A DNA stretch of 64,000 nt, from contig OZ242214.1 of the NCBI GenBank assembly GCA_965206595.1, forward strand, positions 3,808,001 to 3,872,000, read 5' to 3'. Positions within the stretch are counted from its first letter, which is position 1, and the number at the start of each line of letters is the position of its first letter. The DNA is from Candidatus Latescibacterota bacterium (lineage in GTDB: Bacteria; Latescibacterota; UBA2968; UBA8231). Under the pieces are notes generated by a model. It saw only the letters and a program-made list of their open reading frames with translations. It made no database searches and was not told the origin of the DNA. The position numbers were made by a program, and so were the translations under genes. Shown here one piece after another: positions 5,887-26,944 of this stretch.

Positions 5887-5896
5887 CGGGTGTCGG

Positions 5897-8870: not shown

Positions 8871-9250
8871 TCGGGAACCGACAGGCTGACCACGGTCGAG
8901 GCCGGCCCCAGAAAAGCGTTCTCATCGGCGGCCCTCACCTGGACCTGGAGCACGGAACCGGCTTCGAGACTCAGGCTGGTTTCCTCGAGGCTTCTCGCCT
9001 CCGGATCGTCGACCGAGCGCGTCTCCACGCTCCCCGTTGCGTCGGTAAAACCGACGACGAAGGCGGCGACGTTTTGCGTCGAGTCGATCTGCCAGGACAC
9101 CTGGACCGCGTCCCCATCCACGCTTGCCTCCACATCCGTCGGCGTCGCGAGGTAATTCTGGTGGTACTGCTGGGGCATCTCGACATCGTTGCTGCAGCCC
9201 AGGGCGATGACGAGCATGGCCGCGAGCCCGGGAACCTTGGCTATCGACAT
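8867..9250 (-). CDS. Small lipoprotein with fibronectin type III-like domain
   Basis: ALGC lipobox; PTDVEASVDGDAVQVSW...QVQVRAADE...GPAS. Confidence 0.65.
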   Translation of the reverse strand: MSIAKVPGLAAMLVIALGCSNDVEMPQQYHQNYLATPTDVEASVDGDAVQVSWQIDSTQNVAAFVVGFTDATGSVETRSVDDPEARSLEETSLSLEAGSVLQVQVRAADENAFLGPASTVVSLSVPE

Positions 9251-9284
9251 TCGCAGTTGCCTTCCTCGAACCGGAACGGGGGAC

Positions 9285-9848
9285 TTAGAAGCGGGCCACG
9301 ACGGCCGCTCCGGGAGTCCCGGGATTTGCAAACGGCACAACGCTCACCGACGCGTCCGCACGAGCCGCGGCCCCACCGAGGACCAGGACGTCGACGAGAT
9401 TGTAGCCATACACCGCCACGGCGAGAGCACCGAACAGCCGGCGCCGCGTGTGCGAGCTATCGAGATCATCCTTTTTCTCCGACAGCCGCTGCCAGCTCTC
9501 TTCGGCTTCCTCGAAAGAGCCGCCCTGCCGCAGGGAATGGTAGCGCTCCTTCTCCAGGCTGAATTGCGCCGACTGGGTGTTGTAATCCTCGTGCGATGTC
9601 AACCAGACCACCAGACAGGCCACCTCGGCCACCACCAGGGCGGTGCCGCGGCTGCGATGTCCGGCCGCCAGCTGTCCCAGCCCCGGGAACACCGCGGAGA
9701 GAGCGATTGCCCGAGGCCGCGTCAGCGCCTGCTTGCCGGACCCGAGCCGTTCGCCCGGCGCATCCTCGGCCTGCGTTTGAGCGCCGCCCGCCAGCAGCGC
9801 TCCCATAACCATTGACAGCACCCACCCTCGCTTGCTCATACGCTCCAT
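9285..9848 (-). CDS. DUF5683-like membrane protein
   Basis: AIALSAVFPGLGQLAAG motif, two hydrophobic segments, YGYNLVD, C-terminal Phe. Confidence 0.6.
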   Translation of the reverse strand: MERMSKRGWVLSMVMGALLAGGAQTQAEDAPGERLGSGKQALTRPRAIALSAVFPGLGQLAAGHRSRGTALVVAEVACLVVWLTSHEDYNTQSAQFSLEKERYHSLRQGGSFEEAEESWQRLSEKKDDLDSSHTRRRLFGALAVAVYGYNLVDVLVLGGAAARADASVSVVPFANPGTPGAAVVARF

Positions 9849-9911
9849 GACGCCGTCTCAAATGGCGCCCCCGTGATGTCCTGCGGTGTATGCACGTCGA
9901 AAAGACCCCGC

Positions 9912-12900
9912 CTACAACCGGGTCGAGACGATCCAGTCCCTGTGCGCCTTGGCGAACTGGAACACCTCTTTGCTTGCCCGTTTGTCTTCGTACATCTCGA
10001 TCACCCGGTCGTATGTCTCGACTGCATCGCGCCATTGACCGAGGCCTTCCAGACAGACGCCCATGTTGCTCAGCGCGCCCAGCGCACTCTCCGTGTCCGG
10101 ATAGCGCGCGCGAATATCCTCGAAAGAGCTCACGGCGCGCGCGAAATATTGCTTCCTGATGGCCCCCTCCTCCACCGCCTCGGCCGAATCCATCAAGGCG
10201 ACCGCCCGCTCGTAATGATCGTAGGCGATGGCCTCCGTGATCTCGGAGATCAGGCGCGGCACCTGGGCTGCCACTGGATCTTCCGGAAAGCGATCCTGGA
10301 CGAGCTTGTAGGCCAGCATCGCCTCTTCATATGACCCGCGGTTATAGGCATCGTCGGCGAGAGTGAATTGGGCAGCGGCTGCGAATTCGCTCTGCGGATA
10401 GCGTTCGAGGAGTGTTCGGAAAGCTGCCATCGCCTCCGCCTCCCGTTTCAACTCGAGCAGACACCACGCCAGATTGTACTGCGAGTTATCGGCCGTGGTA
10501 TCGTCGGGAAACCTTGTGACAATACGGCTGTAGTAGGGGATGGCAGCTTCGAATTCCCCCAACTGGTAGTGGCTTTCGGCGAGGCCGAACAGGATATCCT
10601 GCAGGGCACGCGCCTGCGGATAGTCGCGCAGCAGCTGTTCGAACATGGTCCAGGCGTCACGGAAATCCCTCAAGCTGTAGTGGGTATTGGCCAGGTAGAA
10701 TCCCACCATCAGACGGTGGTCCGGACCCAGGTCCGCGGCCGCCAGATCCGTGAAGACCTTCCTGGCGCGCTCGAGCTCTCCCCGGTCGAAATAGTGAACG
10801 CCTAGGGTCAACCGCATGTCCGTGGAAAAAAACGAGGCCGGGAACCTGCGCAGGGCCTCCTGAAACACCTTGGCCGCCTCGGCGCTACGGCCCATACGTG
10901 CCAGCGCATCCCCTAGCAGGAAGTAGGCCTTCTCCGCGCGGCCGTACTTCTGGCCCGGTGCCAGCGCATCGTCGAACTGCAGATCGATCAGCTGCCTGGC
11001 GACGACGATCGTCTCCGCGAAGTTGTCGTCCTCGTAGTGGAGATCCATTACGCGCGTCAGGAGAGCGGCCTGTTCCTCGGGGGTCCCCGCCTCGGCGGCC
11101 ATGGCGGCGAGCGTCTTCACCGCCTCGCTGCCGCGGTCCTGCTTCAGGTAGACGAGCGCCAGGGCGTCCTTGGCTGAACGAACCTTGCCCTGTTCCTGTA
11201 CGTTTCCGGCGATCCAGTTGAAGTCCTCTTCCGCAAGACCGTACTGCCCGGCGACAAATGCGGCGTTGCCGCGGCTGAACCGCAACGCCTCTTCCAGGTC
11301 GGCACCGATTGGATAGGTAAGGGCGGCGGTGAAATGGGTTACGGCTGTGCCGTAGTCGTTCAGGCCGCTGTAAGCCTGTCCGAGGAGATAGTTGAAACTG
11401 GCGCGCTGAACGTCCTCGCCCGCCTTCGCCAGACCGGCCTCCAGGACGCGGGCAGCGTGATCGAAGCGACCCGTATTTACCAGGCTGTGCCCGGCGCCCA
11501 GGCGCGACCGTGCGTACAGGGAGGAGGTTTCCGGCACCGCCAGGAAAGCGGTCACAGCGCCGTCAAGGTCGGCCACGGCCTGTTGCGACAGCCCCAGGCG
11601 CATGTGGGCGACGTCGACGTAGTCGCTGGCGGCGTGGTTGTCGAGGAGCTGCCGCGCGCTCGCCGCGGCTTCGCCGTACCTGCCGCGATCGAAGTAGAGC
11701 TCCCCGAGCTGCACGAGGGCCCGGGCGGCCTGGCTCCGGTTTTCCGCCTCGTCGATGATCGCCCGGTATTCCGCCTCTGCCAGGGCAACGGAGTCGTCGC
11801 TTCCCAGAGACTGGTAGGCCAGCGCCCTGTTGAAGCGCGCGTCGAGGAAGTAGGATGACGTTTCATCCATGCACAACGTGTCGTACTGGGCGACGGCCAG
11901 CTGCAGCCACTGCCGGCCCGCACCCGGGCGGGCCTCGGACTCTTCCTCGTCGGCCAGCTGCTGATAGGCGCTGCCGATGCGGTAGCGCACACGGCCCTCG
12001 GGAAACCCGGCGACGTTGGCGATATCGGCGAATCCGTCGAGATAGGTTTCGTACTCCCGCACGGACTCCACGTAGCGGGCCTGCGAAAAGAAACTCTCCG
12101 CCAGGGCATACTGAATGCGCGCCCTCAGCGTCCGGTCGGAGGATTGATCGATCGCCTCCCGGTAAGTGCGGATACTGGCATCGAGATCTCCCCTCTCCCG
12201 ATGCAGGTCGGCCATACGCAGGTACGCCTCTTCGACCAGCTTGCGCTCCGAGCCGAACAGGGTGACCGCCTGCCGGTACGCCTCCAGCCCTTCGTCGTAC
12301 CGTCCCCAGCGAGCATAGGAGGTACCGATGCGGATCTGGGCCTTTGCAGCCAGCTCCAGCGCCGTCTCGTTCACCAGGCCGGCGATCTTCTCCCGCCGTA
12401 TCCGCCGCAACTCCACCTCGGTGAGATTTTCGATCTTCTGCCGGATTATCAACTGGCGGTAGCTGTCTATGGCCCGTGCATACCTGCCCGTCTCCAGGTA
12501 GCACTCGCCGATCTGGAAAAGGCTGCGATCGGCCTGGTACCCGCTGGGGAAACGGGCGAGGAGCCGTTCGAATGCGGAAATCGCCCGGTCGTATTCCCCC
12601 ATCTCGTAGAGCGCCCAACCCGTGTTGTAGTAGCCGACGATGACCTGCGGGTGGTCTGGATAGGCATTGATCAGTGCATCGGCCGCCTCGATGACCTGCG
12701 GAAACTTCCCGGCCTTGAAGTAGAGATCGATGAGCCGTCCGTATGCCAGGACCTTCAGGACTTCGCTGGTCGAACCGTCGATCACCTGTTGAAAAGCGTC
12801 GACAGTCGCTGCAAACGCCTCATCGGCCTGTACCTGCAGTCGTGCCCGCCCGACCTCGTCACCCTCCTCCTCCGCCTGCTGCGCGAAGCCGGCATGGAGC

Positions 12901-13172
12901 TTGGAGAAGGAATTGCCGATCTGGTAGTGGGCGGCTTCCTGGACGGGAAATTCATCATCACCCACGGCGACCTGGATGCCCTCCACGTCCAGGGCCCGGC
13001 TGCGTATCCGCAGGACCGCTTCGTACTTGGTGATCGCCTGATCGTAGGCACCTTCGGCATAGAATCGCTGACCCTCGCGAAAGGTGCTCACCATGTCTTC
13101 CTGGTTGGGCACACGCGAGGCGAGAAAGGTGCCCCCGGCGGTAATCAAAGTCAGCAAAAGAAAGAGGTTCAT
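9912..13172 (-). CDS. Large tetratricopeptide-repeat envelope protein (BamD/CpoB-like TPRs)
   Basis: N-terminal hydrophobic leader; numerous TPRs such as YDRAISAFERLLARFPSG and FRTLLERYPQSEFAAAAQFTLA. Confidence 0.9.
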   Translation of the reverse strand: MNLFLLLTLITAGGTFLASRVPNQEDMVSTFREGQRFYAEGAYDQAITKYEAVLRIRSRALDVEGIQVAVGDDEFPVQEAAHYQIGNSFSKLHAGFAQQAEEEGDEVGRARLQVQADEAFAATVDAFQQVIDGSTSEVLKVLAYGRLIDLYFKAGKFPQVIEAADALINAYPDHPQVIVGYYNTGWALYEMGEYDRAISAFERLLARFPSGYQADRSLFQIGECYLETGRYARAIDSYRQLIIRQKIENLTEVELRRIRREKIAGLVNETALELAAKAQIRIGTSYARWGRYDEGLEAYRQAVTLFGSERKLVEEAYLRMADLHRERGDLDASIRTYREAIDQSSDRTLRARIQYALAESFFSQARYVESVREYETYLDGFADIANVAGFPEGRVRYRIGSAYQQLADEEESEARPGAGRQWLQLAVAQYDTLCMDETSSYFLDARFNRALAYQSLGSDDSVALAEAEYRAIIDEAENRSQAARALVQLGELYFDRGRYGEAAASARQLLDNHAASDYVDVAHMRLGLSQQAVADLDGAVTAFLAVPETSSLYARSRLGAGHSLVNTGRFDHAARVLEAGLAKAGEDVQRASFNYLLGQAYSGLNDYGTAVTHFTAALTYPIGADLEEALRFSRGNAAFVAGQYGLAEEDFNWIAGNVQEQGKVRSAKDALALVYLKQDRGSEAVKTLAAMAAEAGTPEEQAALLTRVMDLHYEDDNFAETIVVARQLIDLQFDDALAPGQKYGRAEKAYFLLGDALARMGRSAEAAKVFQEALRRFPASFFSTDMRLTLGVHYFDRGELERARKVFTDLAAADLGPDHRLMVGFYLANTHYSLRDFRDAWTMFEQLLRDYPQARALQDILFGLAESHYQLGEFEAAIPYYSRIVTRFPDDTTADNSQYNLAWCLLELKREAEAMAAFRTLLERYPQSEFAAAAQFTLADDAYNRGSYEEAMLAYKLVQDRFPEDPVAAQVPRLISEITEAIAYDHYERAVALMDSAEAVEEGAIRKQYFARAVSSFEDIRARYPDTESALGALSNMGVCLEGLGQWRDAVETYDRVIEMYEDKRASKEVFQFAKAHRDWIVSTRL

Positions 13173-13270
13173 TTTTTCGGCCTTGCGATTCGCCCCCTGT
13201 CAAGTGATCCGGTTAATCAGCATTTGCAGTCGGACCCCGGCACGAATCAGCTATTGTTTTCCACGACGCC

Positions 13271-16200
13271 TCAGTCGTCCTCGAATCCCAGGATGGCGTT
13301 GATGAAGGCAGCGGTGAAGCGCTCCCCCCGGAATTCGTCCGCCGCGGGATCATCGAACTTCTTTGTCCGCAGCCGCACGCCGGCGTTGGTCGAGATGATA
13401 TATCCGAAATACCTCGACAGATTCGTCATCATCAACACGGTGTCGCGCTGCTCGAAGCTCTCTTCCGGTTCGGCGAAATCGGTCACCGAGTAGGGGAACT
13501 TCGACGTAATCCCCTGCACACCGAGCTGAAAACGGGTTCTGGTCGTCAGGCGGTATTCCAGTTTCATCAGGGGAATGAGGTGCCGCTGGTGCGCAACGGG
13601 CAGATCCAGGCTGCGCTTCCACTCCTTCCGGTAGCGGATCTTGAAACCGGAAAAAAGACTCAGGCGATCCCAGATTTTCCAGTTGTAATCGATCCTGTGG
13701 GCCATCGTCCAGCGGCTCAGGCGATCGCTTTCCTGCCCGGTCCCGTCCCAGAGCTCCCCTCCGTGCTGATGGTTGACCTCGACCTTGACCTTGTTGTGCA
13801 TGGCGAGATTCGGCACGGTCCGCCAGCGGGCTTCGGTGAAAAGACGCACCAGGGTGCTGTTCTTGTAGTTTAGCGGATCTTCCAGCGGCTCTTCCTGAAA
13901 CGGCACGATGTTGATGTTGCGGGCCAGTCCCGGGAAGTTGGTTGCCTGAATATCCGCCTGGGTAAGGACCCTGTCGCTGTAGACGCTCAGCGGATCTTCC
14001 ACTCCGTCCCGTATGCGTTCCAGCGACAGCTCGGTGAAGAACCTGCCGATTGTCGGCACCTGCCGATTGTAGTCGAGGCGCGAATACAGAACCTCGCTGG
14101 GCACCGATCCGGCTATCTGTTCGGCGTCCAGCAGCCCCAGCGCCAGGCTCAGACCGGCGAGCGGTTTGTATTTTCCGTACAGGTGCATCCCCCTGAGATC
14201 GGGATCGTAGGGCAGGTCCGCTTCCCAGTCGTTCTCCCGCGAATCGATGAAATCGTTGTGGTTGAAATCGACGCCGTACTCGAAGACCTGGGGGTCGACA
14301 TCATACATCAGGAACGGTTCGAGGTCGTCGGGCTGCTGGTTCAGGTTCCGGTTGGTGTCGGGAATGCCGTCGTTGTCCGCATCGAGCCCAGGGAACACGC
14401 CATCGATATCGTGCTGTCCCTGCTTCTTGTCGAAATAGTTGGTGTACCAGCTGTCCGGATAGCGGTCGTTGTCGTCATTGTCCTCGACGAGCCTGTGAAG
14501 GATGGTGTTGTTGTAGGCGATCGGGGTCCCCGACAGATTGAACTCGTCGGCAGCGATGAAGCTGCGGAATTCCGTGGTGAACAAGGGGCCCATGGAAAAC
14601 AGTTCGCCGCGCAGGTCCCAGCGCCGGAAATCCCGATGCAGGGTCACGTAGTAGGCGTTGTCCGAAATGGTGTGGCGCGCTCCGGGAGTCTGTTCCCGCT
14701 CCAGGGCATTGATGGCGATGGCGTCCTGGGGAACGCGCGGTCCCGGCAGTCCGCTCGGGTACATTGAGAACTGGCTGCCGCGGGCGAACTCGGCGTTGAG
14801 CTCGAATCCCTTGACGACCCCGTAGACATTGGCGCTGGCCAGCCGCAGTCCCGTCGGCACCCCGACCTTTACCCGAACGCGCTTCGGCACCCCGTCCCGG
14901 GGATTGCCCCCGGCGCGGGCGACGGTGCGGAAGAACGGGGCGTAGCGGTAGCGGTCCTGGTGGCTGTCGGGGGGTAGAAACTCCGTCGACCGGGCAATGG
15001 GAATTTCCGACAGTTCAAGCCGGTAGTCGTTGGCCAGGACAAGCTCGACTTCGACCGAGGTTATGAACTGCTGCACGGACTCGAGGTCGATGTAGAGAAT
15101 GCCGTAGGTCTCGCCGTCGAAGGCCTGGGGAAGATCCTCTTTCGTGTACATACCGAGAAAATCGCCGGAGGGCTCGGCCAGTTCGTGGGCGAACTCGGAG
15201 TGCACGGTTTTTCCGCTTTCCTCGTCCACAACATGGTCGGGACCGTGGAGCTTGAAGTCCCTGTAGTAGAGGTGGTCGATGAAAAACGGGAACTCGTAGC
15301 CCCGGTAGAAGACGTCGACGTCGGTGGCGAGGTAGTTTATGTAGGATTCATAGGTGCTGAAGGCCCCGCCCCGGTTGACGGTCTGGTAGTCGTTGGAGGC
15401 CGGCCGCGGAGGCAATCCCTTGCGGTTGCCGTTGCTCAGCAGCTCCTGGACGTATATCTGGCGGTCGTCGCCGCGTTTGTGAAGGTGGACGACAAAGGGC
15501 TCCAACTCCGGGCGCAGGACCCCGTCCACGTAGACGTTGACGTCGTGCAGCACCGGTCCGCCCCGGCCATCCAGAGGCGAGTCATCGAGGATGCGGATGG
15601 CGATCAGTGCCGGCGCCGTCTGCACGGCCCCCGGCCTGCCCTGAAGGCTCTCGAACTTGCTCGCCATGAGCGGCTCGTACTGATGCACGTTGAGAAAGGT
15701 GCCGCCGAAGTTGAGGAACCCGACTTTGCGCTCGTAGTGAGCGCCCAGCATCATGGTCGGAACCCTGGCGTTGATGTCCCCGGCCGTGGACGGGCCCTGG
15801 CCGGAGTTGCGCGAAAAGGGGAGCGTCGAGAACAGTGCCGAGAAACTGTCTTTCCCGGTGCCGGCGTCGACCCTGAGACCGTTCAGATTGGAGAGTTTCA
15901 TCGTCAGCGGGGTCAACGACGTGCGGATCTCGTCCCCGTAGATGAATTTGGCCTGCCAGGCGTCGGTGCCGTCCGTGCCGACTATGACGTGGCCGAAGAG
16001 ACGCTCGAAGGCGTTTCCCGTCTGTCCGTGCCCGCCGCTTTCGCCGATCGCGGAGTAACCCCGCTGCACACCGAGGCCCCGGCGCTCGACCCAGGTAACG
16101 GCCTCGGTCCCGTAGAGCAGAGGGTCTCCCATGGAGTTGTAGTGATACCGGAGATTGCTGCTGAGCTCCGGCCGGCGGGAATAGTTCTCGAATCCGTAGT

Positions 16201-16423
16201 TCGTGTAGGGCACCTCGTCGAACCGGCCCACGAAGGGTTGCTCGAACAGAATCCGCGACGGACCCAGCCCGACCCGCTCCGGTTCTTCCGCCGCCTCCTG
16301 GCCGCGTCCGGACCCGGGGACGAGGAGGAGGAATACCGCGCACAATGCGGCCCTTCCGGCAGCTGCGGACACTGGAGTTTTCGATTCCGCGTCGTTCACG
16401 GGTGCTGAGTCGTCTGTTGCCAC
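13271..16423 (-). CDS. Large exported protein, paralog A (predicted outer-membrane beta-rich protein with Asp-rich Ca-binding loops)
   Basis: Signal-like segment; GDEIRTSLTPLT, EDNDDNDRYPD, GVFPGLDADNDGIPD, GVDFNHNDFIDSRENDW shared with 16433 and 19234; amphipathic C-terminal strands. Confidence 0.75.
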   Translation of the reverse strand: MATDDSAPVNDAESKTPVSAAAGRAALCAVFLLLVPGSGRGQEAAEEPERVGLGPSRILFEQPFVGRFDEVPYTNYGFENYSRRPELSSNLRYHYNSMGDPLLYGTEAVTWVERRGLGVQRGYSAIGESGGHGQTGNAFERLFGHVIVGTDGTDAWQAKFIYGDEIRTSLTPLTMKLSNLNGLRVDAGTGKDSFSALFSTLPFSRNSGQGPSTAGDINARVPTMMLGAHYERKVGFLNFGGTFLNVHQYEPLMASKFESLQGRPGAVQTAPALIAIRILDDSPLDGRGGPVLHDVNVYVDGVLRPELEPFVVHLHKRGDDRQIYVQELLSNGNRKGLPPRPASNDYQTVNRGGAFSTYESYINYLATDVDVFYRGYEFPFFIDHLYYRDFKLHGPDHVVDEESGKTVHSEFAHELAEPSGDFLGMYTKEDLPQAFDGETYGILYIDLESVQQFITSVEVELVLANDYRLELSEIPIARSTEFLPPDSHQDRYRYAPFFRTVARAGGNPRDGVPKRVRVKVGVPTGLRLASANVYGVVKGFELNAEFARGSQFSMYPSGLPGPRVPQDAIAINALEREQTPGARHTISDNAYYVTLHRDFRRWDLRGELFSMGPLFTTEFRSFIAADEFNLSGTPIAYNNTILHRLVEDNDDNDRYPDSWYTNYFDKKQGQHDIDGVFPGLDADNDGIPDTNRNLNQQPDDLEPFLMYDVDPQVFEYGVDFNHNDFIDSRENDWEADLPYDPDLRGMHLYGKYKPLAGLSLALGLLDAEQIAGSVPSEVLYSRLDYNRQVPTIGRFFTELSLERIRDGVEDPLSVYSDRVLTQADIQATNFPGLARNINIVPFQEEPLEDPLNYKNSTLVRLFTEARWRTVPNLAMHNKVKVEVNHQHGGELWDGTGQESDRLSRWTMAHRIDYNWKIWDRLSLFSGFKIRYRKEWKRSLDLPVAHQRHLIPLMKLEYRLTTRTRFQLGVQGITSKFPYSVTDFAEPEESFEQRDTVLMMTNLSRYFGYIISTNAGVRLRTKKFDDPAADEFRGERFTAAFINAILGFEDD

Positions 16424-16432
16424 TCTGTGGTC

Positions 16433-19231
16433 CTAGAACGAAGGCCGCAGACCGGCGATCGCCCGGAGAAAGATGCGTGAGTAGTCAACGTCCTGATCCC
16501 TGCGCGAACGGTCGGAGAACCTTCGTGCCCGGCGCTCGAAACCGGCATTGATATTGAGTTGGTAACCGACATAGGATGAGGTGTTCGACACCATGGCTAC
16601 GTAGACCTCCGAATCGAAGTCGGATCCCGGAACAACCTCACTGCGGAAAGTGCTTTTGAGAAAGGGGAATCCCTGGGCGCCCAGCTTTACCGTGGTGCGG
16701 GTCGAGACGGGATATTCGAGGCGCAGAATCGGATAGAAATAGCGCTCGTGGATTTCGAGAACCCGCCGTTCGTCGTCTTCGAGGCGCTGCCGGAGCCATT
16801 TTACCTGTGGAATCACCCGCAGCTGTTTCCACGGACGCCACTCGTAGTCAGCCTTGACGACCACAGCGAGATCGGTGACCGCGTTGTCCGGCTGAATCGC
16901 CGTGCTCTGCTGGAAATTCCTGTCGTACTTGAAGCTCATTTCCAGGTTCAACTTCGGCACGCGGATGTAGCGAACCCGGGTGTAGGTGGTGTTCACCCAA
17001 CTGTCGCGCATCAACAGGGGATCCGGCAGGAGCACGGCGCCGCCCAGCGGGTTGAGCAGTTCCTCCTGCGTCAAGCGAACCAGGGGAACGATGTCGGGCT
17101 CGAAATAGATGGGATTGCGACCCACTCCGAATACGTCGTCCCTGATTTCGTCGCGCACCCGCTTCAACCGTTCCGCGGCGTAGATGTCGATGAGAAACGG
17201 TATGCGACGCTCGTATTCCCAGCGGCCGTACAGCATCTCGGCGCGAGTACCGGCGGAAGCGGCATTCGTTCTGTGGAAACCGACGGTTACGGCCATGCCC
17301 TTGCGCGGACGGAACACGCCGAACAGGTGTCCCCCCCGGCGGTCCGGATCGTAGGGCAGGTCCGCCTTCTGGTCGTCTTCGCGCACGTCGATGACGGCGT
17401 TGTTGTTCATGTCGTCGCCGTACTCGTAGGCGTCGGGACTGACCTCGTAGAGCAGAAAGGGCTCGAAGTAATCAGGCACCCTGTTGACGTTCTCGTTGAT
17501 ATCGGGGCGGCCGTTCTGATCGGCGTCCAGACCGGGGAAGATCCCGTCGGGATCCATGATGTAGCGGCCCCCGGTTATCACGTTTGTGGTCTTGCGCAGA
17601 AAGTAGACGTCCGGGTACTGGTCCTTGTCGTCGTTGTCGTCGACCGTGGGAAACTCGATCGTGTAGGTCCCGTCGGCGAGATTCGGGCCGATCCGGGTGG
17701 GCAGCCGCGGTTCGTGTATGTTTCGCGGATACGAAAACACCGCCAGGGAGCTCGCATACGAGTCGTCCTGCACCGAGAGGGTGGTCGAGTAGTTCTCGTC
17801 AATTCCGAAGACCTCCCCCCCAAGGCTGAACCGATCCCAATCCCGCCGGCCGACGACGAACCAGGCGGGGCTCTGGCTCCTGAACTGACCGCCGCTGGAA
17901 CCAGTGAGGGCCGGGTAGGCGCGATGGTCGAAATTCCTCACGTACTCCGCGTGGAGCAGGTACCCCTTCAAATCCAGATTTATGTGAACACTTGCAAGTG
18001 AGCGGGCCGTCTGGCGGCCGTAGCGCACCCGCACCCGGCGGTAATCGTCCAGGTCTGAAGGCCGGCCCTCCGCCCGGGCGGCGGTGTAGAAATACGTCGC
18101 CGGGTTGGTGGACAACCCGTTGAACACCTCGGACAGCTCGACCTTGTAATCTCCCGCCACATCCATGTCCACCTGGGCCCGGTCGACTACGAGCGAGTCC
18201 GGTCCCTCCATCACGAAAGCGGGCACCCTGAACCAGAACAGCAGGCTGCCCTTTTCCTCTGTCTCGAAATACCCCTGCGTCGTGGGCTCGACGTGTTCGG
18301 CGTTGATGTCCAGGCGGCCGGAACTGTCGGTGATGACCGGCGGTATGATCGTGCGGTCCGGGTGCGCGGTCACCGTGAGCGTCAGGGCGTCTGGGGAAAG
18401 TTTGTCGTACTGGCCACGGCTGTGCACGAGCTCACGGCCGTTGATCAGGACGGCGATGCGGCGCACCCGCACGCCGGCATTGTCGTCGGGATCCTGGTCG
18501 GCGACGCGCACCACGAGCCACTCGGGGGGGTGGATGGTAGCGGGCAAGCTGCCGGTGATACTGCTTTCGCCAATCTCCCGGAAGCTGTCCGTGCGGAACT
18601 GGTTGACCCAGCTGACACCGACGTCCAGCCTCGTCCACTGGGCCCGCAGGTCGCCGCCCAGCAGGTAGGTCGCCAGGCGCGGACGGGAGGTAGCGTACTG
18701 TCGGCCGTGAGCGCTCTGATCGGCGTTTCCGAAGGACTCGAAAATCGGACGGTCGACGCGCGATCCGACCAGGATCAGGGAAACCCTTTCTGATCGGGAG
18801 TCGAAGCGAATCCCGTTCATCGCCGCCAGATCAAGGGTCATGGGCGTGAACTTGGTGCGGATCCTGTCGCCGATCATCAAGCGCGTGCTGACCCCCTTGT
18901 AGCCGTCCTCGGCGATGACCAGCCGGTTCAGGTAGTCCTGGTACAACCTGGGTTTGCTGATGAGACTTCCGGGCTCGGGTGCGATCGAATGGAATTGCTG
19001 CAGCTCGAAGACATTGGTGCCGCTCATCACGAACTGCCCGAGGTTGTCGAACTGTGGCCTGCGATCCTTGCCGTAGAGAACCGTCTCGTAGGGCCAGTAG
19101 CCTTCGTAGGCGTAGTTGACGTAGGGCTCACCCGCGCGGTACAGCATTTGTGCTTCCAGGGCTTGGCTCCCGGGGCAGCCAAGCAACAGCGCGAGACAGA
19201 TGGCGGCGATGTGCCGCCGCTCCAGAAACAT
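16433..19231 (-). CDS. Large exported protein, paralog B
   Basis: Signal peptide; GDRIRTKFTPMT, DDNDDKDQYPD, GIFPGLDADQNGRPD, GDDMNNNAVIDVREDD; ends in Phe. Confidence 0.75.
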   Translation of the reverse strand: MFLERRHIAAICLALLLGCPGSQALEAQMLYRAGEPYVNYAYEGYWPYETVLYGKDRRPQFDNLGQFVMSGTNVFELQQFHSIAPEPGSLISKPRLYQDYLNRLVIAEDGYKGVSTRLMIGDRIRTKFTPMTLDLAAMNGIRFDSRSERVSLILVGSRVDRPIFESFGNADQSAHGRQYATSRPRLATYLLGGDLRAQWTRLDVGVSWVNQFRTDSFREIGESSITGSLPATIHPPEWLVVRVADQDPDDNAGVRVRRIAVLINGRELVHSRGQYDKLSPDALTLTVTAHPDRTIIPPVITDSSGRLDINAEHVEPTTQGYFETEEKGSLLFWFRVPAFVMEGPDSLVVDRAQVDMDVAGDYKVELSEVFNGLSTNPATYFYTAARAEGRPSDLDDYRRVRVRYGRQTARSLASVHINLDLKGYLLHAEYVRNFDHRAYPALTGSSGGQFRSQSPAWFVVGRRDWDRFSLGGEVFGIDENYSTTLSVQDDSYASSLAVFSYPRNIHEPRLPTRIGPNLADGTYTIEFPTVDDNDDKDQYPDVYFLRKTTNVITGGRYIMDPDGIFPGLDADQNGRPDINENVNRVPDYFEPFLLYEVSPDAYEYGDDMNNNAVIDVREDDQKADLPYDPDRRGGHLFGVFRPRKGMAVTVGFHRTNAASAGTRAEMLYGRWEYERRIPFLIDIYAAERLKRVRDEIRDDVFGVGRNPIYFEPDIVPLVRLTQEELLNPLGGAVLLPDPLLMRDSWVNTTYTRVRYIRVPKLNLEMSFKYDRNFQQSTAIQPDNAVTDLAVVVKADYEWRPWKQLRVIPQVKWLRQRLEDDERRVLEIHERYFYPILRLEYPVSTRTTVKLGAQGFPFLKSTFRSEVVPGSDFDSEVYVAMVSNTSSYVGYQLNINAGFERRARRFSDRSRRDQDVDYSRIFLRAIAGLRPSF

Positions 19232-19233
19232 GG

Positions 19234-21933
19234 TCAGCCTATGAAGACCTTGAAGAAGTACTCCACGAATCCCACTGACGGCCGCTGCGATCCCGTGAAG
19301 CTGGTGGAGGTGCGGTAGCCCCCGAACAGAAGGGCGAGATCGTAGCCGCGGTGATTGCTCCTGTTCTGCAGAAACGCCGTGTACGTCCGGCGGCGGAAAT
19401 CCCGCTCGGGACTTGTCGGGTCGAGAGATTTCTCCGGCAGGAAGGGCAGACCTTGAACGCCGGTTTTCAGGTCCGTGTGCGGACCGATGCGGCAGTCGAT
19501 TCGCAGAACAGGGATGATCCAGCGCGTCTGCCGGTCGGGGATGGCCCGCTCGGGAAACTTGCTGCGCTGAAAAACATGCTTGAACTGCGGCAGGATGGTG
19601 AACCGCTTCAGGCGCCAGGTATAGTCGGCCATGTTGACCATGGCGAAGTGGGTGATGGTTCCCGGCGCCGCCGTCTTCGGATCGTCAAGGGACGGCCCCG
19701 TCAGATCGACATAGTTGAAGGAGACGACATTGCGAAAATTCAAGCCTTCGATGGTCTTCAGCTCGGTTTCGAAATGGGTCAGATTGTCGACGCTGTCCCG
19801 GCGCTGGAGCAGGTCCGGCTCCAACTCGTAGCGGCTCGAACGGGTCAGACCGGAGGGCAGCGTTTCCGTTTCGATGAACTGGTAGATGGTGTTGCGAATA
19901 TCGTCCTGCACCCACTTGATCCGGTGGTTAAGACGAATTTCACCCAGCTCTTCCCAAGTGCGCTCGTACCGACCTTCGAGATAACCGGCATCGTTGGACA
20001 AACCCAGAGCCGGCTGGCGGATGCGATAGGCCCCGAAACGCACCTTCGTGCGCGCCGTCGGCCTGACCGAGGCGAAGGCGTGCAGGCCGCGATGGTCAGC
20101 CGGATAGAGGTAATCCGGCAGATTGTCGTTTTCCCGCAGGTCGGCGATGCCGTTGTTGTTGAAATCGTCGCCGAACACCATTTCGGGCGGATCCACGTAG
20201 TATCCCAGAAACGGGGTAAATGCATTTCCGCCCACGTTCAGGTCGAGGATCCCGTCGTGGTTGAGGTCCAGCCCGGGAAAGACCCCGTAGCCTTCACCCG
20301 AAGAGCGCGTGAAAAAAGCAAGCGGATCCCCGTGTTCGGTCCAGTCGGGCCAGGCATCCAGATCGTCGTTGTCCTCGACTAGGGCGAAACGTTCGTAAAC
20401 CTTGCCGCCGACCGTGTGTCCGATAGCGGACCCGCGGAAGATCGAGAAATCGGTAGTGTAGTCAGCGGGGACATCGAACCACTCGATGCCGACGTCCGCT
20501 TGCGAACTGACTGGTCTAAGGAGGTTGAGGTAGAAAGTGGAACTGTCGCGATCGTGGCGGCCGCCGCCGGGTGAGGGCACCTTGAGAAACCGGGTGCTCC
20601 GGGCGAACTCCCCCTGGAGACGGCTTCCCAGGATTTTGGCTTCGAAGTCGAGCCCCAGTATTCCCAGCCCGGTTGGAAACCCGTAGCGGAAGGTGACGCG
20701 GCGGAGGTTGGAGTTGCTGCCTGGATTGCCGCTGGCCCGCAACGTGTTGTTCCAGTCGTAGAAGAGATCACCGTATTCGGTTCCGGAATCGAACAGCGGT
20801 ACCTGCATCCCTCCGACCACGTCGACGCTGTAGTCGTTGGCCAGAATGGCCTCGAAGCGAACGTCTTTCGTCGCTTCCGGAACCTCGTACTCGTAAAAGA
20901 TCACGTCGGTGCCGTTGGCTGCCAGGGGAGCGCTTCCCGAGGCCGGCGCCGCTTCCAGCGAGATCCGATCCAGCAAGATTGGAAAAAAACTTTCGTTGCT
21001 TGCGGCGACGGCTGCCGGCAACCAGGGTCCATTGCGCCGGATGTGCTCCACGTCTCCCGGACTCAACGGAATGGTGTTGCTGCGATCGAAAGTGATGGGG
21101 ATGTGCTCGAGGAGGCGCTCGATCCTTCCCACCCGGAGCTGCTCCACCGCCTCGCCGTCGGCAAACATCGTCACCCCGTAGATCGCCGCCCCCGGTGCCG
21201 TGTCGTGTGGCGCATCATCGGTAAAGAAGACGAACACCCGGCGCAGCCCGCCGTCCCGGACCACTCCCGGGACATCCCCCTTCAAGCCGTTGAGATTGGC
21301 ACTGGCCTCACCGTCGAAGCGGTGAGCGTTGACGTAGGTCGTTCCTATCCTGAGGAGGTCTCCGATCTGGCTCTCCCAGTGAGCGCCGAACAGGGTGGTA
21401 CCGAAAACTCGGCGCTGTTCGATAAACGCGTCGCTCGGCACATAGGAGCTGGGAGCTGTGAGCGGATCTCGCAGATGCGTGGCGATTACGCTGAATCTGC
21501 TTTTGCGCGAAGAGCCGTCCCAGCGGATCCCGTTGAAATTCGGGATGTTCAAGGTCATGGGAGTGAAGGTGGTGCGCAGGTGCTCACCGATTATCAGGCG
21601 GGTGGACCAGCGGCCGAACCCCTCGTCGGCGATGACGAGCTTCTGGAAGAAATTGTTATAGCCCCCGCTGCGCGCTTCGAAGCTGCCTATCCGGCCCGGG
21701 GCATTGCGGCGTACCTCGCTGAATTCCAGGATATCGACGCCATCGATCAGAAGGTCGCCGAAGATGTCGAAACGGCGGTTCTCCCCTTCGAAATCGTAGT
21801 CCCGGTAACCGTTGGCGCCGTAGTTCTCGAATACCTCGTTTGCCCACTGTGTGCGAAAGTCCCTGGACAGGAACTGGGCATCGGACGAGAAAGCTGACAG
21901 GAAAAGACAGAAAGACAGGCTGAGAAGACGCAT
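19234..21933 (-). CDS. Large exported protein, paralog C
   Basis: Signal peptide; GEHLRTTFTPMT, EDNDDLDAWPD, GVFPGLDLNHDGILD, GDDFNNNGIADLREND; ends YFFKVFIG. Confidence 0.75.
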   Translation of the reverse strand: MRLLSLSFCLFLSAFSSDAQFLSRDFRTQWANEVFENYGANGYRDYDFEGENRRFDIFGDLLIDGVDILEFSEVRRNAPGRIGSFEARSGGYNNFFQKLVIADEGFGRWSTRLIIGEHLRTTFTPMTLNIPNFNGIRWDGSSRKSRFSVIATHLRDPLTAPSSYVPSDAFIEQRRVFGTTLFGAHWESQIGDLLRIGTTYVNAHRFDGEASANLNGLKGDVPGVVRDGGLRRVFVFFTDDAPHDTAPGAAIYGVTMFADGEAVEQLRVGRIERLLEHIPITFDRSNTIPLSPGDVEHIRRNGPWLPAAVAASNESFFPILLDRISLEAAPASGSAPLAANGTDVIFYEYEVPEATKDVRFEAILANDYSVDVVGGMQVPLFDSGTEYGDLFYDWNNTLRASGNPGSNSNLRRVTFRYGFPTGLGILGLDFEAKILGSRLQGEFARSTRFLKVPSPGGGRHDRDSSTFYLNLLRPVSSQADVGIEWFDVPADYTTDFSIFRGSAIGHTVGGKVYERFALVEDNDDLDAWPDWTEHGDPLAFFTRSSGEGYGVFPGLDLNHDGILDLNVGGNAFTPFLGYYVDPPEMVFGDDFNNNGIADLRENDNLPDYLYPADHRGLHAFASVRPTARTKVRFGAYRIRQPALGLSNDAGYLEGRYERTWEELGEIRLNHRIKWVQDDIRNTIYQFIETETLPSGLTRSSRYELEPDLLQRRDSVDNLTHFETELKTIEGLNFRNVVSFNYVDLTGPSLDDPKTAAPGTITHFAMVNMADYTWRLKRFTILPQFKHVFQRSKFPERAIPDRQTRWIIPVLRIDCRIGPHTDLKTGVQGLPFLPEKSLDPTSPERDFRRRTYTAFLQNRSNHRGYDLALLFGGYRTSTSFTGSQRPSVGFVEYFFKVFIG

Positions 21934-21942
21934 GGAGCCCGG

Positions 21943-24090
21943 CTAATACACCATGCCCACGACACCCGCAGCGGTTTCGGCATCGGGCTCGATATCCACG
22001 ACCAGACGGTACAGGTAGAGTCCCGGAGGAAGCAGCTCGCCGCCCTGATCGCGTCCGTCCCATGAGAAGGGAAGTCCGGTCCGTCCGCCCGGGCCTGGCA
22101 CATAGTAACCGGCATCCAGGCGCTGGTCGGGCAGGGTCCGGACCAGAGACCCGCCAAGATCATAGATCCCGACCTGCACCGGTGCGTCGGACACGCGGCC
22201 CAGAATGAATCCGAGGCTGAACCTGTCGTTGATCCCGTCATCGTTCGGCGAGAAGACCGCAGGGAAAGGGTGCACATCGCTGAGAATGGAGAGAGCGAAG
22301 CTCGTTGCCGCCGAGACCACCGAATAGGGCTCTCCCGTCAGCGGATCCACTCCTTCCCGCTGCTGTACGGAGAGAGGAGAGTTGGAGTCGGGTGCGTAGA
22401 GCAACCCCTGGAATTCATGACTGGCAGCAAGCAGCCGGGTCGTGAAGGGGATTTCGAGTTCCAGGCTGGCGCTGATCGGGGGATCGAAGGCGATAACCAG
22501 CGAGTCAGCCGTCGCGTAGGTGCCCGCGGCATCGATGCCGACCTCTCCGCTCACCGCCGGGATATCGAGCTGTGCCGGCCATGGCGTCAGGATGACGAGC
22601 CGTTGGACGCCGGCGTCGTCATCTCCGATTTCCAGGTCGAGGGAATAGGTGAACGTGGAATCGACCCCGATCGACACCAGCGACGGCGCGATCGAGGCCA
22701 AGGCGTCGGTTGCTGCCAGCGGTCCTCTGTTGTAGAAGAAAACAAGGCTGTCGAGCTGCGGACTCGCGAAAGGATCGGGTGTCCGCATGCGCAGTTGGAA
22801 CTGGAGAAAGCGCCGCGGTTCGGGTACGGTCAGGCGAGTCTCCGGATCCGGACTCCAGGCCGACCAACCGCTCCAGTTCTCCCCGTCGTCACCGCTGCGG
22901 AACTGGACTGCTATTTCAGCAGTGGCCGAAACGGAATCGAAGCGCACGGCTCGGTCATAATTTTTACGCTCGGGGACACCGAAATCCAATGGTGGAGACA
23001 GATAAGTCCCCCTCTCATCGAACCCGTTTCCGAAGACTTCCAGCTCCCCCACTCGCGGAGCGGCGTTGCGATTGGCGAATTCGGTGACCACCATGCGGAC
23101 ATAGCGCGCGATGATGGTCGCAAAATCGACGGCGGTCTCACGGAAGTCGGTGATCTGGTTCCGGGAGCCCACATCGAGGTAGCTCACGCCATCCTTGCTC
23201 ACCAGAACACTATAGCCGCGCAGCGAGTTGTCTTCGTAGCTTCCGGAGCTCCCCGGGGGCTGCGTTATCACCTTGACGCGGTTGATGGGAAACAGGCGCC
23301 CGAGGTCGACCTCGACCTCATCGAACAGCACCCTGCCCCCCTTTGCATAACTGACCGGGGAACCGATATCGCCGTCGATGAGCTTTAGGTCCTTCGAGAA
23401 CGTGTTGAAGGCGAGATTCTGTCCCTCAAAAGAACGCAGCCGCAGGCCGCCGCGACTGCCGTCGAGACCCCCGGGGAATCCCGCCACGGATCGCGCTCTG
23501 GTGAGATCGAGGTCGGCGAACTCGGCAAATCCGCCCGGGTCGAGGCTGCCGGCCTGGACCGAACGCCAAGTGACTGCCGCTTCCTTGCCGTCCACGTCTT
23601 CGCTATGACTGGACAGCTTGTTGAGCCGCAGCGTCATCCAGTCGGCGCCGTCTTCGTTGTCGAGAGCGAAGTCGGTCCAGAACCACGGTGTCAGGCGGTC
23701 GGTGGGAGAACTCGGCAGGAGTACGCCCTCGGCCTCCAGCACGACGAACATCCCATAGCCTCCGGAGGTCCCGTCGTGCTCGACGACCGCAGCGACCATG
23801 TTGGTACGCCTGTTGAACGGAACATCGTAGACCTCAACCGATCCGGGGTCGTCGTCCGTTCCAACCAGATCGCCGTTGAGATAGAGGCTGTAGCGATCCG
23901 CAGCGGCGATGCGGATGCGGCCATCGACAGCATCCGCGAATTCGGCGAAACCCAGGTAAAAGGTTGTGGTTGCCCACGTATCGACGGAAGCGCGTTCGAG
24001 GATCTGGGAGGAGGCCTGCGAAGCGATTGCCGCCACAAGCAAGGCACTCGGAAGGCGCCACCCGGCTCTATGTAGTGGTCCGGTTCCCAA
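21943..24090 (-). CDS. Secreted discoidin (F5/8 type C)-domain protein with C-terminal CHU_C/FlgD-like Ig domain
   Basis: EVDLGRLFPINRVKV...YSVLVSKDG...ARYVRMVV (discoidin); FSPNDDGINDR and WDGRDQGGELLPPGLYLY tail. Start probably TTG 24090, because the longer ORF to 24288 runs through a terminator. Confidence 0.7.
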   Translation of the reverse strand: MGTGPLHRAGWRLPSALLVAAIASQASSQILERASVDTWATTTFYLGFAEFADAVDGRIRIAAADRYSLYLNGDLVGTDDDPGSVEVYDVPFNRRTNMVAAVVEHDGTSGGYGMFVVLEAEGVLLPSSPTDRLTPWFWTDFALDNEDGADWMTLRLNKLSSHSEDVDGKEAAVTWRSVQAGSLDPGGFAEFADLDLTRARSVAGFPGGLDGSRGGLRLRSFEGQNLAFNTFSKDLKLIDGDIGSPVSYAKGGRVLFDEVEVDLGRLFPINRVKVITQPPGSSGSYEDNSLRGYSVLVSKDGVSYLDVGSRNQITDFRETAVDFATIIARYVRMVVTEFANRNAAPRVGELEVFGNGFDERGTYLSPPLDFGVPERKNYDRAVRFDSVSATAEIAVQFRSGDDGENWSGWSAWSPDPETRLTVPEPRRFLQFQLRMRTPDPFASPQLDSLVFFYNRGPLAATDALASIAPSLVSIGVDSTFTYSLDLEIGDDDAGVQRLVILTPWPAQLDIPAVSGEVGIDAAGTYATADSLVIAFDPPISASLELEIPFTTRLLAASHEFQGLLYAPDSNSPLSVQQREGVDPLTGEPYSVVSAATSFALSILSDVHPFPAVFSPNDDGINDRFSLGFILGRVSDAPVQVGIYDLGGSLVRTLPDQRLDAGYYVPGPGGRTGLPFSWDGRDQGGELLPPGLYLYRLVVDIEPDAETAAGVVGMVY

Positions 24091-24239
24091 TTTGGCAACC
24101 CTTTGTTTTTTTCTGGCGTTAAGGCGGGAAACCGGGCCGTTCGTCGGGATCCGATTGTCCCCGCACGGGGGCGGACAGCTCCTCATACGCCGGTTCCTTT
24201 GTCGATTACCTACCGCAAGCACCTGGCGGAGCGCGCCAC

Positions 24240-24273
24240 AAAAAAGGTGCCACCGGGAACTACCGGTGGCACC
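24240..24273 (-). terminator. Intrinsic terminator after the 24294-26312 gene
   Basis: Perfect 11-bp stem GGTGCCACCGG/CCGGTGGCACC with 6-nt loop, followed by a T-run on the minus strand. Confidence 0.85.
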
Positions 24274-24293
24274 CCGAAACAACTGCAAGCTCC

Positions 24294-26312
24294 TTATTTG
24301 AGGAAGGTGACCTTCTTGCTGAGGCTCAGATTGGGAGCTTCGATCTTGTAGATGTACACGCCGCTGGACACTTCCACCCCGTCGGCATTCCTGCCGTCCC
24401 AGGTGACCTCGAAATTGCCGGCGGGCAAGCTCTCATCAACCAGGTCGACGACGAACTGGCCTTGAGTGTTGAAGACTTTGACCGACACCGGCGCTTCCCA
24501 CGGAAGGGAGAAACGGATAGTGGTTTCCGGGTTGAAAGGATTTGGAAAAGCATCGCCCAGGGCAGCGGCATTCGGCGTGGCATCGCCTTCGACCTCCTCG
24601 ACCGCAGTCGCCGGGTCCCCGAGGCTTACGCGCTTCTGATCGTACGGCAACTGCACGAGCCAGTGGAAAGAATAGTAGCTGACGATCTGGTCCTCGGTCG
24701 GGGGCGGTGCCCAGTCATTCGTTCTCTGGCCGGGGTCATTCTCTCCGACGCTGATGTACATGCCGTCCCAAGCACTGTCGTCGTGATCGACGATCATCGT
24801 CCACTGCGGGTAGGAACTGGGGATATTCGTCGGCTGCAGCAGGAACAGGCCCGAGCCGTCGCCGCCGAGCACGGAACCGTAATCGGTGAGGTTCACGGCG
24901 GAGTGACCGATGGAGATCCAACCCCATTTGGTCGAGTTGAACCCGTACTTGGCCCCGTCGCCCGAGGTATTGCCGTAGGTGGGCTCGGCGCCGAAGCTGC
25001 CCGGGACATACATATCGCCGAAGCCGTCGCCGTTGCGGTTGATCCATCTGATGCCACCGCTGTCGTAATCCATGCTCATGACGATGGAGGTGTGGTGACC
25101 CGAGAGGGTCAGGCCGGTTGGATCGTTCTTGCCGGCGTAGTCTCTGGCTGACCAGCCAGGTCCGCCGACGCGGTCGCTGCCGTTGTTGTCATACAGAAAG
25201 ATGTCGGACAGATCCCACAGATCGAGATTTTCACCACTGTCCAGATCCCAGACCGCAACCGTGCCCACTGTGCCGTCTACGCCCGTGGTGGTGTAAATCT
25301 TGTTGTTGCCGGGATCGACTGCGACTCCGTACTTGCGCGTCGGCTGAAGCTCTCTGTAGTCGATGAAACCGTTGACGGCCCCATGGTCCGCACCCCAGCT
25401 CTCGTCGACGGAAGCCGACTGTGTTGCCGGATCGTAAGAGCCCCTGAAGAGCAGTCCGCCACCCTGATTCTGGCCGTTGGCAACGTACGTCCGCATATCG
25501 TCGGTGACGTTGCCGCTGGTTCCCAACGGAGTCATGTCGAAGACGTGAAACGGCAGGGGGCGGTCGCTCTCCGCCCACCAGAACACGTGCCGGCCGACGG
25601 GAATGTCGCCCGCGTCGGGGGCTGAATTGTGGATTTCGGTGCGGTCGATGTACGTCGCCGCTTCCGGGTTGTTGATGAAGTCGTTGTTCATGTCGACGAC
25701 CCACTCGTAGGGCCGCGTCAGCGTCTCGGCGTCGGGATCGATGATGAGCATTTCGCCCGTTCCCTGCCTGCCGGGAGCATAACCGACGATGTGCGCCGTG
25801 GCGTCGGCGTCGAAGGCTGCGAGGAACAGGTCGTACGAACCCCGGGACACGACGTTCCCTTCCATGTCGCGGCCGTTCCAGACAATGGTGTTGTCGCCGG
25901 TGTCGAAACGTTCGCCGGAAGACCTGTAGACCAACAGGTCCACGTTCTGGTAAACATGCCAGCCCGGCTCGGCGTAATCTCCGAGAACGTGCGGAGCCGG
26001 TCCTTCACCTGTGATGGTCAGCGGCGGATTCTCTCCCTTGGTGTAGATGATCAGCCACACGGTAGCGGAACCGCTCTGCGTTCCTTCGAGCGTGAAGGGA
26101 ATGGACAGATCGGAACCGTCGAATGCGTAGTCTTCTATTGGTGAAAGACCGCTGATGACGACCGTCTCTGGACGGCCGCCGCTGGTCATGTCGTTGAGCC
26201 CCAGACTTCCGTCCCCCACGAAGCGCGAGAAACGCTCTTCCTGGGCATTCGACACACCCGCAAGGAGCACCAGGGATGCCGCTCCTGCTCCAATTATGCG
26301 ATACAAAGACAT
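24294..26312 (-). CDS. Secreted protein with internal FlgD-like Ig module and C-terminal T9SS type A-like/FlgD sorting domain
   Basis: Signal peptide (VSNA|Q); WNGRDMEGNVVSRGSY; C-terminal TAVEE...FPNPFNPETTIRFSL...WDGRNADGVEVSSGVYIYKI...KKVTFLK; AAAGGAGG RBS. Confidence 0.85.
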   Translation of the reverse strand: MSLYRIIGAGAASLVLLAGVSNAQEERFSRFVGDGSLGLNDMTSGGRPETVVISGLSPIEDYAFDGSDLSIPFTLEGTQSGSATVWLIIYTKGENPPLTITGEGPAPHVLGDYAEPGWHVYQNVDLLVYRSSGERFDTGDNTIVWNGRDMEGNVVSRGSYDLFLAAFDADATAHIVGYAPGRQGTGEMLIIDPDAETLTRPYEWVVDMNNDFINNPEAATYIDRTEIHNSAPDAGDIPVGRHVFWWAESDRPLPFHVFDMTPLGTSGNVTDDMRTYVANGQNQGGGLLFRGSYDPATQSASVDESWGADHGAVNGFIDYRELQPTRKYGVAVDPGNNKIYTTTGVDGTVGTVAVWDLDSGENLDLWDLSDIFLYDNNGSDRVGGPGWSARDYAGKNDPTGLTLSGHHTSIVMSMDYDSGGIRWINRNGDGFGDMYVPGSFGAEPTYGNTSGDGAKYGFNSTKWGWISIGHSAVNLTDYGSVLGGDGSGLFLLQPTNIPSSYPQWTMIVDHDDSAWDGMYISVGENDPGQRTNDWAPPPTEDQIVSYYSFHWLVQLPYDQKRVSLGDPATAVEEVEGDATPNAAALGDAFPNPFNPETTIRFSLPWEAPVSVKVFNTQGQFVVDLVDESLPAGNFEVTWDGRNADGVEVSSGVYIYKIEAPNLSLSKKVTFLK

Positions 26313-26944
26313 GCAATTCCTCCTTTGGGAATGTGGATTTTCTCCGTGGAAACTACTTCAAAAATTGGCTTACGCCTGCTGTCGTTGAGGTCGCGTTCTA
26401 TACCCGTTCGCCTTCCTTTCACCTCTCTCCGGCAATTTAGCAACCTAGATCCTGTTTGGAGTTTGTCCGCCAAAAAAAACCCGCGCGGCTCGTATTGGAA
26501 TCTTCCCCACTACGTCCTGCGGGAGTGGCGAACCAGTTTCGTCCGCTATAAGCCCTGCAGAAAATTTTGACTAATGCCGGATTTCCCTCCCTGGTAGCCT
26601 CTCCTGCCATTCCCCAGCTTTCACTAAGGGCGGCCAAGCTACGGCGCTCATCCGAAGAAAGCAAGGGATATGTTTGAAGACCCGGCTCTCAGGATGGAAA
26701 CCAAAAAGAACCTCGCCATGCCTGAGCCGGGTGACGATCGCAGCAGGCCATGGGAGGATCAGCGCCCCTGGAAGGGGCATTTTCCCAATCTGGGGCGTGG
26801 CGGTTTCAACTACTGGCTCCGGCCGCCGGACCCGTACTGCCTCGAGCTCGCACCCACCCAGGTCGCCTCTACACCCGCTATCCCTTTCCATACGGGTCCA
26901 TACGGGGTGCCGGCGACGACGATCAGCTGCCTCGACCGAACAAT

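Follow-up and report, generated by a model that had tools for sequence, protein, structure and literature searches.

The window, a 64,000-nucleotide stretch of a Candidatus Latescibacterota genome, carries three consecutive genes on the minus strand, here called alpha (19234..21933; 899 amino acids, with a signal peptide), beta (16433..19231; 932 amino acids), and gamma (13271..16423; 1050 amino acids). Alpha and beta are separated by 2 bases, and beta and gamma by 9. The first-pass annotation described these open reading frames as tandem diverged paralogs, and pairwise BLASTP bears this out, with 25–27% identity over 950–1080 columns and E-values from 1e-67 to 1e-82. Eight patterns modelled on the sequence blocks listed in that annotation, with the G.(H/D)...Q/K.G block left out, each occur in all three proteins and in the same order. 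Contigs from three other public runs, belonging to two studies, span region 9000-26500; the differences listed are 22 substitutions, with no indel among them.

None of the three proteins has a match in Pfam or NCBIfam, and searches of PDB sequences returned nothing with the family profile or with a KSB1-type member. Fold searches give low similarity, and to outer-membrane barrels only, in keeping with the earlier proposal of a new family. At E<=0.001, a family profile search recovers 1231 clusters (50% identity), of which 413 remain at 1e-30. Named homologs are mostly labelled Ca. Latescibacterota, and ESM Atlas matches are unnamed Latescibacterota clusters; an Atlas match to DUF6029 (0.89, 158 shared features) is a lead only. 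A weak PDB match to the EF-hand protein S100P (E 2.5e-4, beta residues 319-378) lies outside the Asp-rich loop described below and was treated as chance.

AlphaFold2 modeling of mature alpha from 108 sequences yields a pLDDT of 84 and a pTM of 0.85. The DSSP list of this model, from which the strand number was read and barrel closure presumed, contains 23 barrel strands in residues 80-879, with short turns alternating with long loops, and one further likely strand at residues 47-56, in a low-confidence region, brings the total to ~24. The hallmarks of an outer-membrane barrel are present in alpha: a signal peptide, long antiparallel amphipathic strands, short turns, and long loops. The model contains neither an N-terminal plug domain nor a TonB box, and the stretch ahead of the barrel strands is just ~80 residues long and of low confidence. 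Alpha is therefore predicted to be a plug-less ~24-strand outer-membrane barrel, a barrel being what the first reading had anticipated, and full-length homology suggests that beta and gamma are barrels as well.

The nearest fold match to alpha is SlpA of Deinococcus (PF21620; PDB 8ae1, 7zgx), which ranks first in Foldseek (E 5e-9, TM 0.20, 10% identity), ahead of MtrB and LptD. VIA-align returns a flat series of barrels with Z scores from 14 to 10, the longest alignment being to SlpA (Z 12.9, rmsd 9.0, 406 residues). Both proteins are very large single-chain barrels with acidic insertions of a metal-binding type, which in SlpA lie in the lumen according to PMC9388160. However, SlpA has 30 strands, forms a homotrimer, and carries an SLH domain and a coiled-coil tether, neither of which is predicted here, as judged by the lack of a Pfam match and of a long helix in the model. 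The SlpA_C profile does not match alpha, beta, or gamma; of 27 other members scanned, three show matches of ~90 residues, one over the cut-off, and the match spans strands 7-10 only. SlpA is, at the level of models, a distant fold neighbour only.

Two large inserts interrupt the predicted barrel of alpha. The first, a beta-sandwich at mature residues 189-399 (20680..21312, minus strand), folds confidently when modelled alone (pLDDT 87). The second is an Asp-rich segment at mature residues 470-594 (20095..20469, minus strand), which has 18 Asp and 6 Glu in 125 residues and contains DNDDxDxxPD, PGLDxNxDG, and DxNxNG motifs. Because long loops and short turns segregate to opposite sides, both inserts probably lie on the outer, long-loop side. 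The expectation that the inserts are variable holds for the beta-sandwich, which is the least conserved region across the paralogs of this genome (mean 19% identity, 163-271 amino acids), but fails for the Asp-rich segment, which is the most conserved (mean 38% identity, 119-153 amino acids). As an isolated domain, the beta-sandwich has no Foldseek match at E<=0.001, and its best fold match is a generic beta-sandwich with a Z of 5.0; matches this weak do not establish the fold as new. Of 213 long members, 196 contain a Dx[DN]x[DN]GxxD/E motif, compared with 2 of 213 shuffled sequences. Motifs of the Dx[DN]xDG type are calcium-binding loops, so the Asp-rich insert is likely to bind calcium, which gives motif-level support to the calcium-binding loop domain named in the first-pass annotation.

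The family is strongly expanded in this 7.05 Mb genome, where 33 matching open reading frames correspond to 32 genes at 15 loci and take up more than 1% of the genome by themselves. The difference of one reflects a gene split over two frames (G000:C1:6373614-6377462), beside which the cargo reading frames look broken too. A FastTree phylogeny, built from 31 members of this genome together with 14 drawn from five others, divides into class II (20 rows from this genome) and class I, and places alpha, beta, and gamma in three class I clades (support 93, 100, and 90) that correspond to their places in the operon. The two remaining multi-gene loci of class I in the genome run alpha, beta, gamma as well, with one doubling of beta. 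The same order is found in 10 of 11 loci of relatives, chosen for strong matches, with a lone gamma as the remaining one; the gammas of genomes G132 and G014 came from a separate search, and that of G014 is cut by a contig end. The first and second members of class II pairs likewise form separate clades. From sequence, then, alpha, beta, and gamma are old subfamilies kept in a fixed order, which suggests, without showing it, a hetero-oligomer, and a heteromeric pore is plausible, although five genomes outside the phylum make do with one copy. At another locus (G000:C1:3746753-3752563), two almost identical tandem beta paralogs, with branch lengths of 0 and 0.017, represent either a recent duplication or an assembly artefact.

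Immediately upstream of alpha lie two genes for exported proteins with tails resembling type IX secretion system (T9SS) sorting domains. Cargo B (21943..24288, minus strand), which ends 9 bases before alpha, combines an F5/8 type C (galactose-binding-like) domain with a type-B-like C-terminal domain (CTD) that matches CHU_C and carries the motif FSPNDDGIND; its true start is probably downstream of the called TTG. The tail scores 27.0 bits against CHU_C (cut-off 27) and 18.4 against TIGR04131 (cut-off 35), and matches FlgD_ig too. Cargo A (24294..26312, minus strand) is a 672-amino-acid exported protein with a type-A-like C-terminal domain, and its four homologs in the genome all lie less than 10 kb from big-barrel genes. 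The genome encodes T9SS components SprA (615 bits, with its neighbours), PorU (618 bits), and PorV.

Across the genome, 147 open reading frames have a CTD-like tail: 55 are aromatic-ended (type-B-like), 75 end in K, R, or E (type-A-like), and 17 are unclassified. An FTPNGDGxND-like motif is found in 54 of the 55 aromatic-ended tails versus 1 of the 75 K/R/E-ended ones, and tails of the F[TS]PNGDGxND type presumably mark type-B cargo. Many type-B-like paralogs match both CHU_C, above its cut-off, and F5/8 type C. Within 6 kb of a big-barrel gene lie 34 of the 55 type-B-like cargo genes, leaving 21 orphans, versus 5 of the 75 type-A-like genes and 123 of 4574 genes overall. Conversely, type-B-like cargo is present in 14 of the 15 barrel loci, and the 32 barrel genes stand directly behind such cargo in 14 cases, behind another family gene in 13, and behind neither in 5. 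Similarity among barrels correlates with similarity among their adjacent cargos (14 pairs, rho 0.62, p 0.0007). Of 78 loci from named genomes, 69 hold type-B-like cargo, as do 48 of the 51 with near-full flanks. Near class II loci there are also exported proteins of ~300 amino acids with a short conserved tail of the AVE..SWG.IK type (L001:17188-18108 and similar), possibly another sorting signal; 7 of 15 homologs are no further than 10 kb from a barrel gene. Class II loci are also where SurA-like foldase homologs gather around barrels (9 of 12 within 10 kb, for example at L006/L007), and a neighbouring gene in genome G009 has a rotamase match.

Barrel and cargo tail also share a distribution. 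The family occurs in all 63 sampled genomes of the same taxonomic family, and of 151 genomes of the phylum, 95 have a big barrel (one weakly), 96 have the cargo tail (two at threshold), and 94 have both. SprA is present in 146 of the 151, including all 51 genomes of families f2-f4, which all lack a big barrel; barrel and tail are jointly absent from most of the other phylum genomes that keep SprA. Given the kinship of these genomes, the absences represent two or three events. A single family gene is present in each of five genomes from outside the phylum.

Downstream of gamma, and likewise on the minus strand, the window operon continues with a giant TPR protein of 1086 amino acids (9912..13172) with a hydrophobic N-terminus, likely a periplasmic scaffold, a DUF5683 protein (9285..9848), and a small likely lipoprotein (8867..9340), whose same-position gene in genome G017 has a weak fn3 match. 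These are followed by a protein with an N-terminal transmembrane helix, a basic and Pro-rich linker, and a DUF4159 head (TM-DUF4159; 7614..8870), an architecture that makes it a candidate energy transducer with a TonB-like role. The operon ends with a 262-amino-acid likely lipoprotein (6829..7617), homologous to the N-terminal part of paralogs of 418-440 amino acids that belong to the other two class I loci, and a 311-amino-acid exported CsgG-like protein (5897..6832), whose same-position gene in genome G055 has a weak CsgG match. The full order is cargo A, cargo B, alpha, beta, gamma, TPR, DUF5683, lipoprotein, TM-DUF4159, lipoprotein, and CsgG-like protein, which ExbB-ExbD-ExbD genes follow in six of nine same-family relatives. 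In this genome, the orthologous ExbB gene (78% and 68%) is found on the opposite strand at a distance of 9 kb, and ExbD1/2 are ~52 kb away, all outside the window. The operon is flanked in the window (4013-6051 and 26989-28383) by an aminoglycoside 3-N-acetyltransferase-family gene, a UxuA-like dehydratase, and a GNAT protein, which are outside the operon in relatives. Further upstream, a DUF6785/DUF6784 membrane protein (28443-30377) is one of 46 homologs in the genome.

The same modules recur at greater distances. Genomes G015, G017, G006, and G003, which represent three other families of the phylum and contributed one strong cargo-tail match each, have cargo, a barrel of ~320 amino acids, one to three big barrels, and a TPR protein; in three of the four stretches retrieved, ExbB and ExbD follow further along. 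The operon of distant genomes consists of cargo, a PorP/SprF-like shuttle, a big barrel, a giant TPR protein, ExbB, ExbD, and DUF4159; records deposited as KSB1, Neomarinimicrobiota, and Bacteroidota contain these genes, and records deposited as Zhuqueibacterota and Cytophagia contain them with extra genes inserted, these five genomes being the ones with a single family gene. Among five small barrels tested against the PorP_SprF cut-off, two pass, one falls below, and two are silent; four other small barrels give weak PorV or FadL-type matches or none. A search of this genome with PF11751 found no match, although the small-barrel ortholog is present, and a profile comparison of the big barrels with the small-barrel alignment found no similarity (probability 0.7%). 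Homologs of the window-type TPR, DUF4159, and ExbB proteins are not found beside class II cassettes. The defining context of the system is type-B-like T9SS cargo upstream and TPR, DUF4159, and ExbBD downstream, in a family of 32 copies in this genome.

This genome also holds a paralogous operon (G000:C1:215531-228894) that encodes a CsgG-like protein, a lipoprotein, a PorP-like small barrel, a 1081-amino-acid TPR protein, ExbB, ExbD, and DUF4159, and has neither a big barrel nor cargo. A motor operon with a small barrel and without a big one raises the possibility that the motor works for the shuttle. Replacement of the PorP/SprF shuttle by the big barrels was rejected because the ancestral operon has a small PorP/SprF-like barrel. 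Since that small barrel passes the PorP_SprF cut-off in two of five cases, the shuttle role is already filled, making the big barrel an additional part.

Comparison with known systems sharpens this picture. In Bacteroidota, a type-B cargo depends on its own PorP/SprF partner, whose gene comes immediately after it, as in the pair SprB-SprF (PMC12618676). Similarly, 14 of the 32 big-barrel genes directly follow type-B-like cargo, in a genome with SprA, PorU, and PorV; unlike PorP/SprF proteins of ~300 amino acids, however, the big barrels have 899-1050 amino acids, ~24 predicted strands, and no PF11751 match, coexist with a PorP/SprF-like gene, and are linked to ExbBD and TPR genes. TonB-dependent transporters such as SusC have an N-terminal plug domain and a 22-strand barrel. 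The many diverged cassettes of a barrel with a surface glycan-binding protein, and ExbB/ExbD in the operon, resemble SusC/SusD, but the big barrels lack a plug, the 20 genomic matches to PF00593 include no member of the family, the partner is a CTD-secreted F5/8 protein instead of a SusD lipoprotein, and TPR and DUF4159 proteins stand in place of plain TonB. SusD (PF07980) has no match in this genome (93% complete) or in the other barrel-bearing genomes among 41 searched, with a positive control in B. thetaiotaomicron; the only SusD-like matches among the 41 are five in the barrel-less family f2 (G013, G023, G033, G037, and G039). The big barrels lack defining features of PorP/SprF, TonB-dependent transporters, and SlpA alike.

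Our leading reading, held tentatively and short of an even balance, is that the big barrels are the outer-membrane platform of a proton-motor-driven capture-and-uptake machine that T9SS supplies with lectins. In such a machine, type-B-tailed cargo would exit through SprA, be collected by the small PorP/SprF-like shuttle, and sit on or beside the large barrel or barrels, where its F5/8 domain would bind glycan. Alpha, beta, and gamma would probably form one hetero-oligomer, with the conserved Asp-rich, probably calcium-stabilised loop taking the part of a TonB plug by gating or filling the lumen and the variable beta-sandwich setting partner or substrate specificity. ExbB-ExbD-ExbD would drive the TM-DUF4159 protein and the giant TPR scaffold, opening the gate so that oligosaccharide enters the periplasm. 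In Latescibacterota the unit of cargo plus barrel would have expanded into a large set of cassettes, as SusC/SusD did in Bacteroidota. It counts against this reading that the model lacks both plug and TonB box, so that the known route of energised gating does not apply. A more doubtful, though conceivable, version is that a plug-less ~24-strand heterotrimer, gated by calcium-stapled loops, equipped with T9SS lectins, and driven by ExbB-ExbD through TPR and DUF4159 proteins, constitutes a new class of energised transporter.

Uptake is supported by the proximity of type-B-like cargo, the co-occurrence of barrel and tail, the conserved TPR-ExbB-ExbD-DUF4159 operon, the barrel model, and the absence of SusD. 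It is weakened by the absence of motor genes beside class II cassettes, the paralogous motor operon that has a small barrel but no big one, the displaced ExbB and ExbD1/2, and the ~19 ordinary TonB-dependent receptors of the genome. The window operon also encodes no hydrolase and no inner-membrane transporter, which counts against it, as does the single copy outside the phylum, which looks like housekeeping more than substrate-specific uptake. Of the 46 permease-like DUF6785 genes, 6 lie no more than 10 kb from a barrel, compared with 189 of 4574 genes overall, which is only a mild enrichment.

The single copy outside the phylum fits better with the main alternative, rather unlikely but serious, in which the barrels hold T9SS-delivered cargo as an adhesin that ExbB/ExbD/ExbD and TPR proteins move or expose, for motility, attachment, or the arrangement of surface polymers. 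Its parts list resembles that of the Agl-Glt machinery of Myxococcus, which, according to PMC3169522 and PMC9946355, comprises one ExbB-like and two ExbD-like subunits, a TonB-like transducer, and TPR proteins, and whose heteromeric three-barrel platform GltA/B/H retains the independently secreted adhesin CglB. ExbB, two ExbD, an apparent TonB-like protein, and TPR in one cluster, together with three barrels, lipoproteins, and a surface-held adhesin-like protein, would be shared features; the clustering holds in relatives and is displaced in this genome. Bacteroidota type-B cargos are described in PMC12618676 and PMC12635249 as adhesins held on their carrier. The two systems, compared by parts list, differ in that the cargo here is T9SS-tagged and the barrels carry two large inserts. 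In addition, one motor would not call for 32 copies and many diverged lectin-like cargos, and motor genes are missing from most cassettes.

It is improbable that the operon replaces GldLM/GldKN, its motor pulling shuttle-bound cargo from SprA and the big barrels acting as a type-B secretion accessory or final cargo anchor. This would suit the paralogous operon with a shuttle only (215531-228894), a class II barrel pair with two cargos that lies 4.7 kb from sprA (L017 and L019; G000:C1:6656656-6673118), and GldM searches that came back empty for sets of 41 and 5 genomes, with no match from a positive control either. However, 51 genomes have SprA without barrels, and DUF4159 matches are weak and partial in all five barrel-less genomes tested. 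General T9SS function thus needs no such operon, and it is the type-B-specific version of this explanation that survives. Weak DUF4159 matches in family f2 include in-frame TGA codons, two at G007:C1:1104759-1105325 and one at G018:C1:4491763-4492308. Quite improbable is a structural protein or general large porin akin to SlpA/OmpM, with ExbBD-TPR maintaining the envelope as Tol-Pal does, which would accord with the SlpA fold ranking, SlpA_C matches, and lumenal insertions described above but conflicts with the missing SLH and coiled-coil tether, the strand count, and the short match, and leaves unexplained both the tie to type-B-like cargo and the at least 51 phylum genomes without a barrel.

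The open-access main texts searched contain no description of the big-barrel family or of T9SS in Latescibacterota. Type IX secretion in KSB1, Marinimicrobia, Gemmatimonad, or Latescibacter, and DUF4159 with ExbD or TonB, were likewise absent among the matches listed. To our knowledge, classes of large outer-membrane barrels are few, and the energised ones rely on TonB and a plug. Association with both T9SS type-B cargo and an ExbBD-TPR motor would make a plug-less family a new kind of trans-envelope design. Non-specific porins are invoked in an early genome study of the phylum (PMC4454575); capture and uptake by the big barrels could account for glycan acquisition by saccharolytic Latescibacterota in the absence of SusD. 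If the reading as a new class of energised transporter is true, the system would be the SusC/SusD counterpart of the non-Bacteroidota FCB phyla, joining type IX secretion to an ExbBD motor, with the single-copy operons of other FCB lineages as its minimal version.
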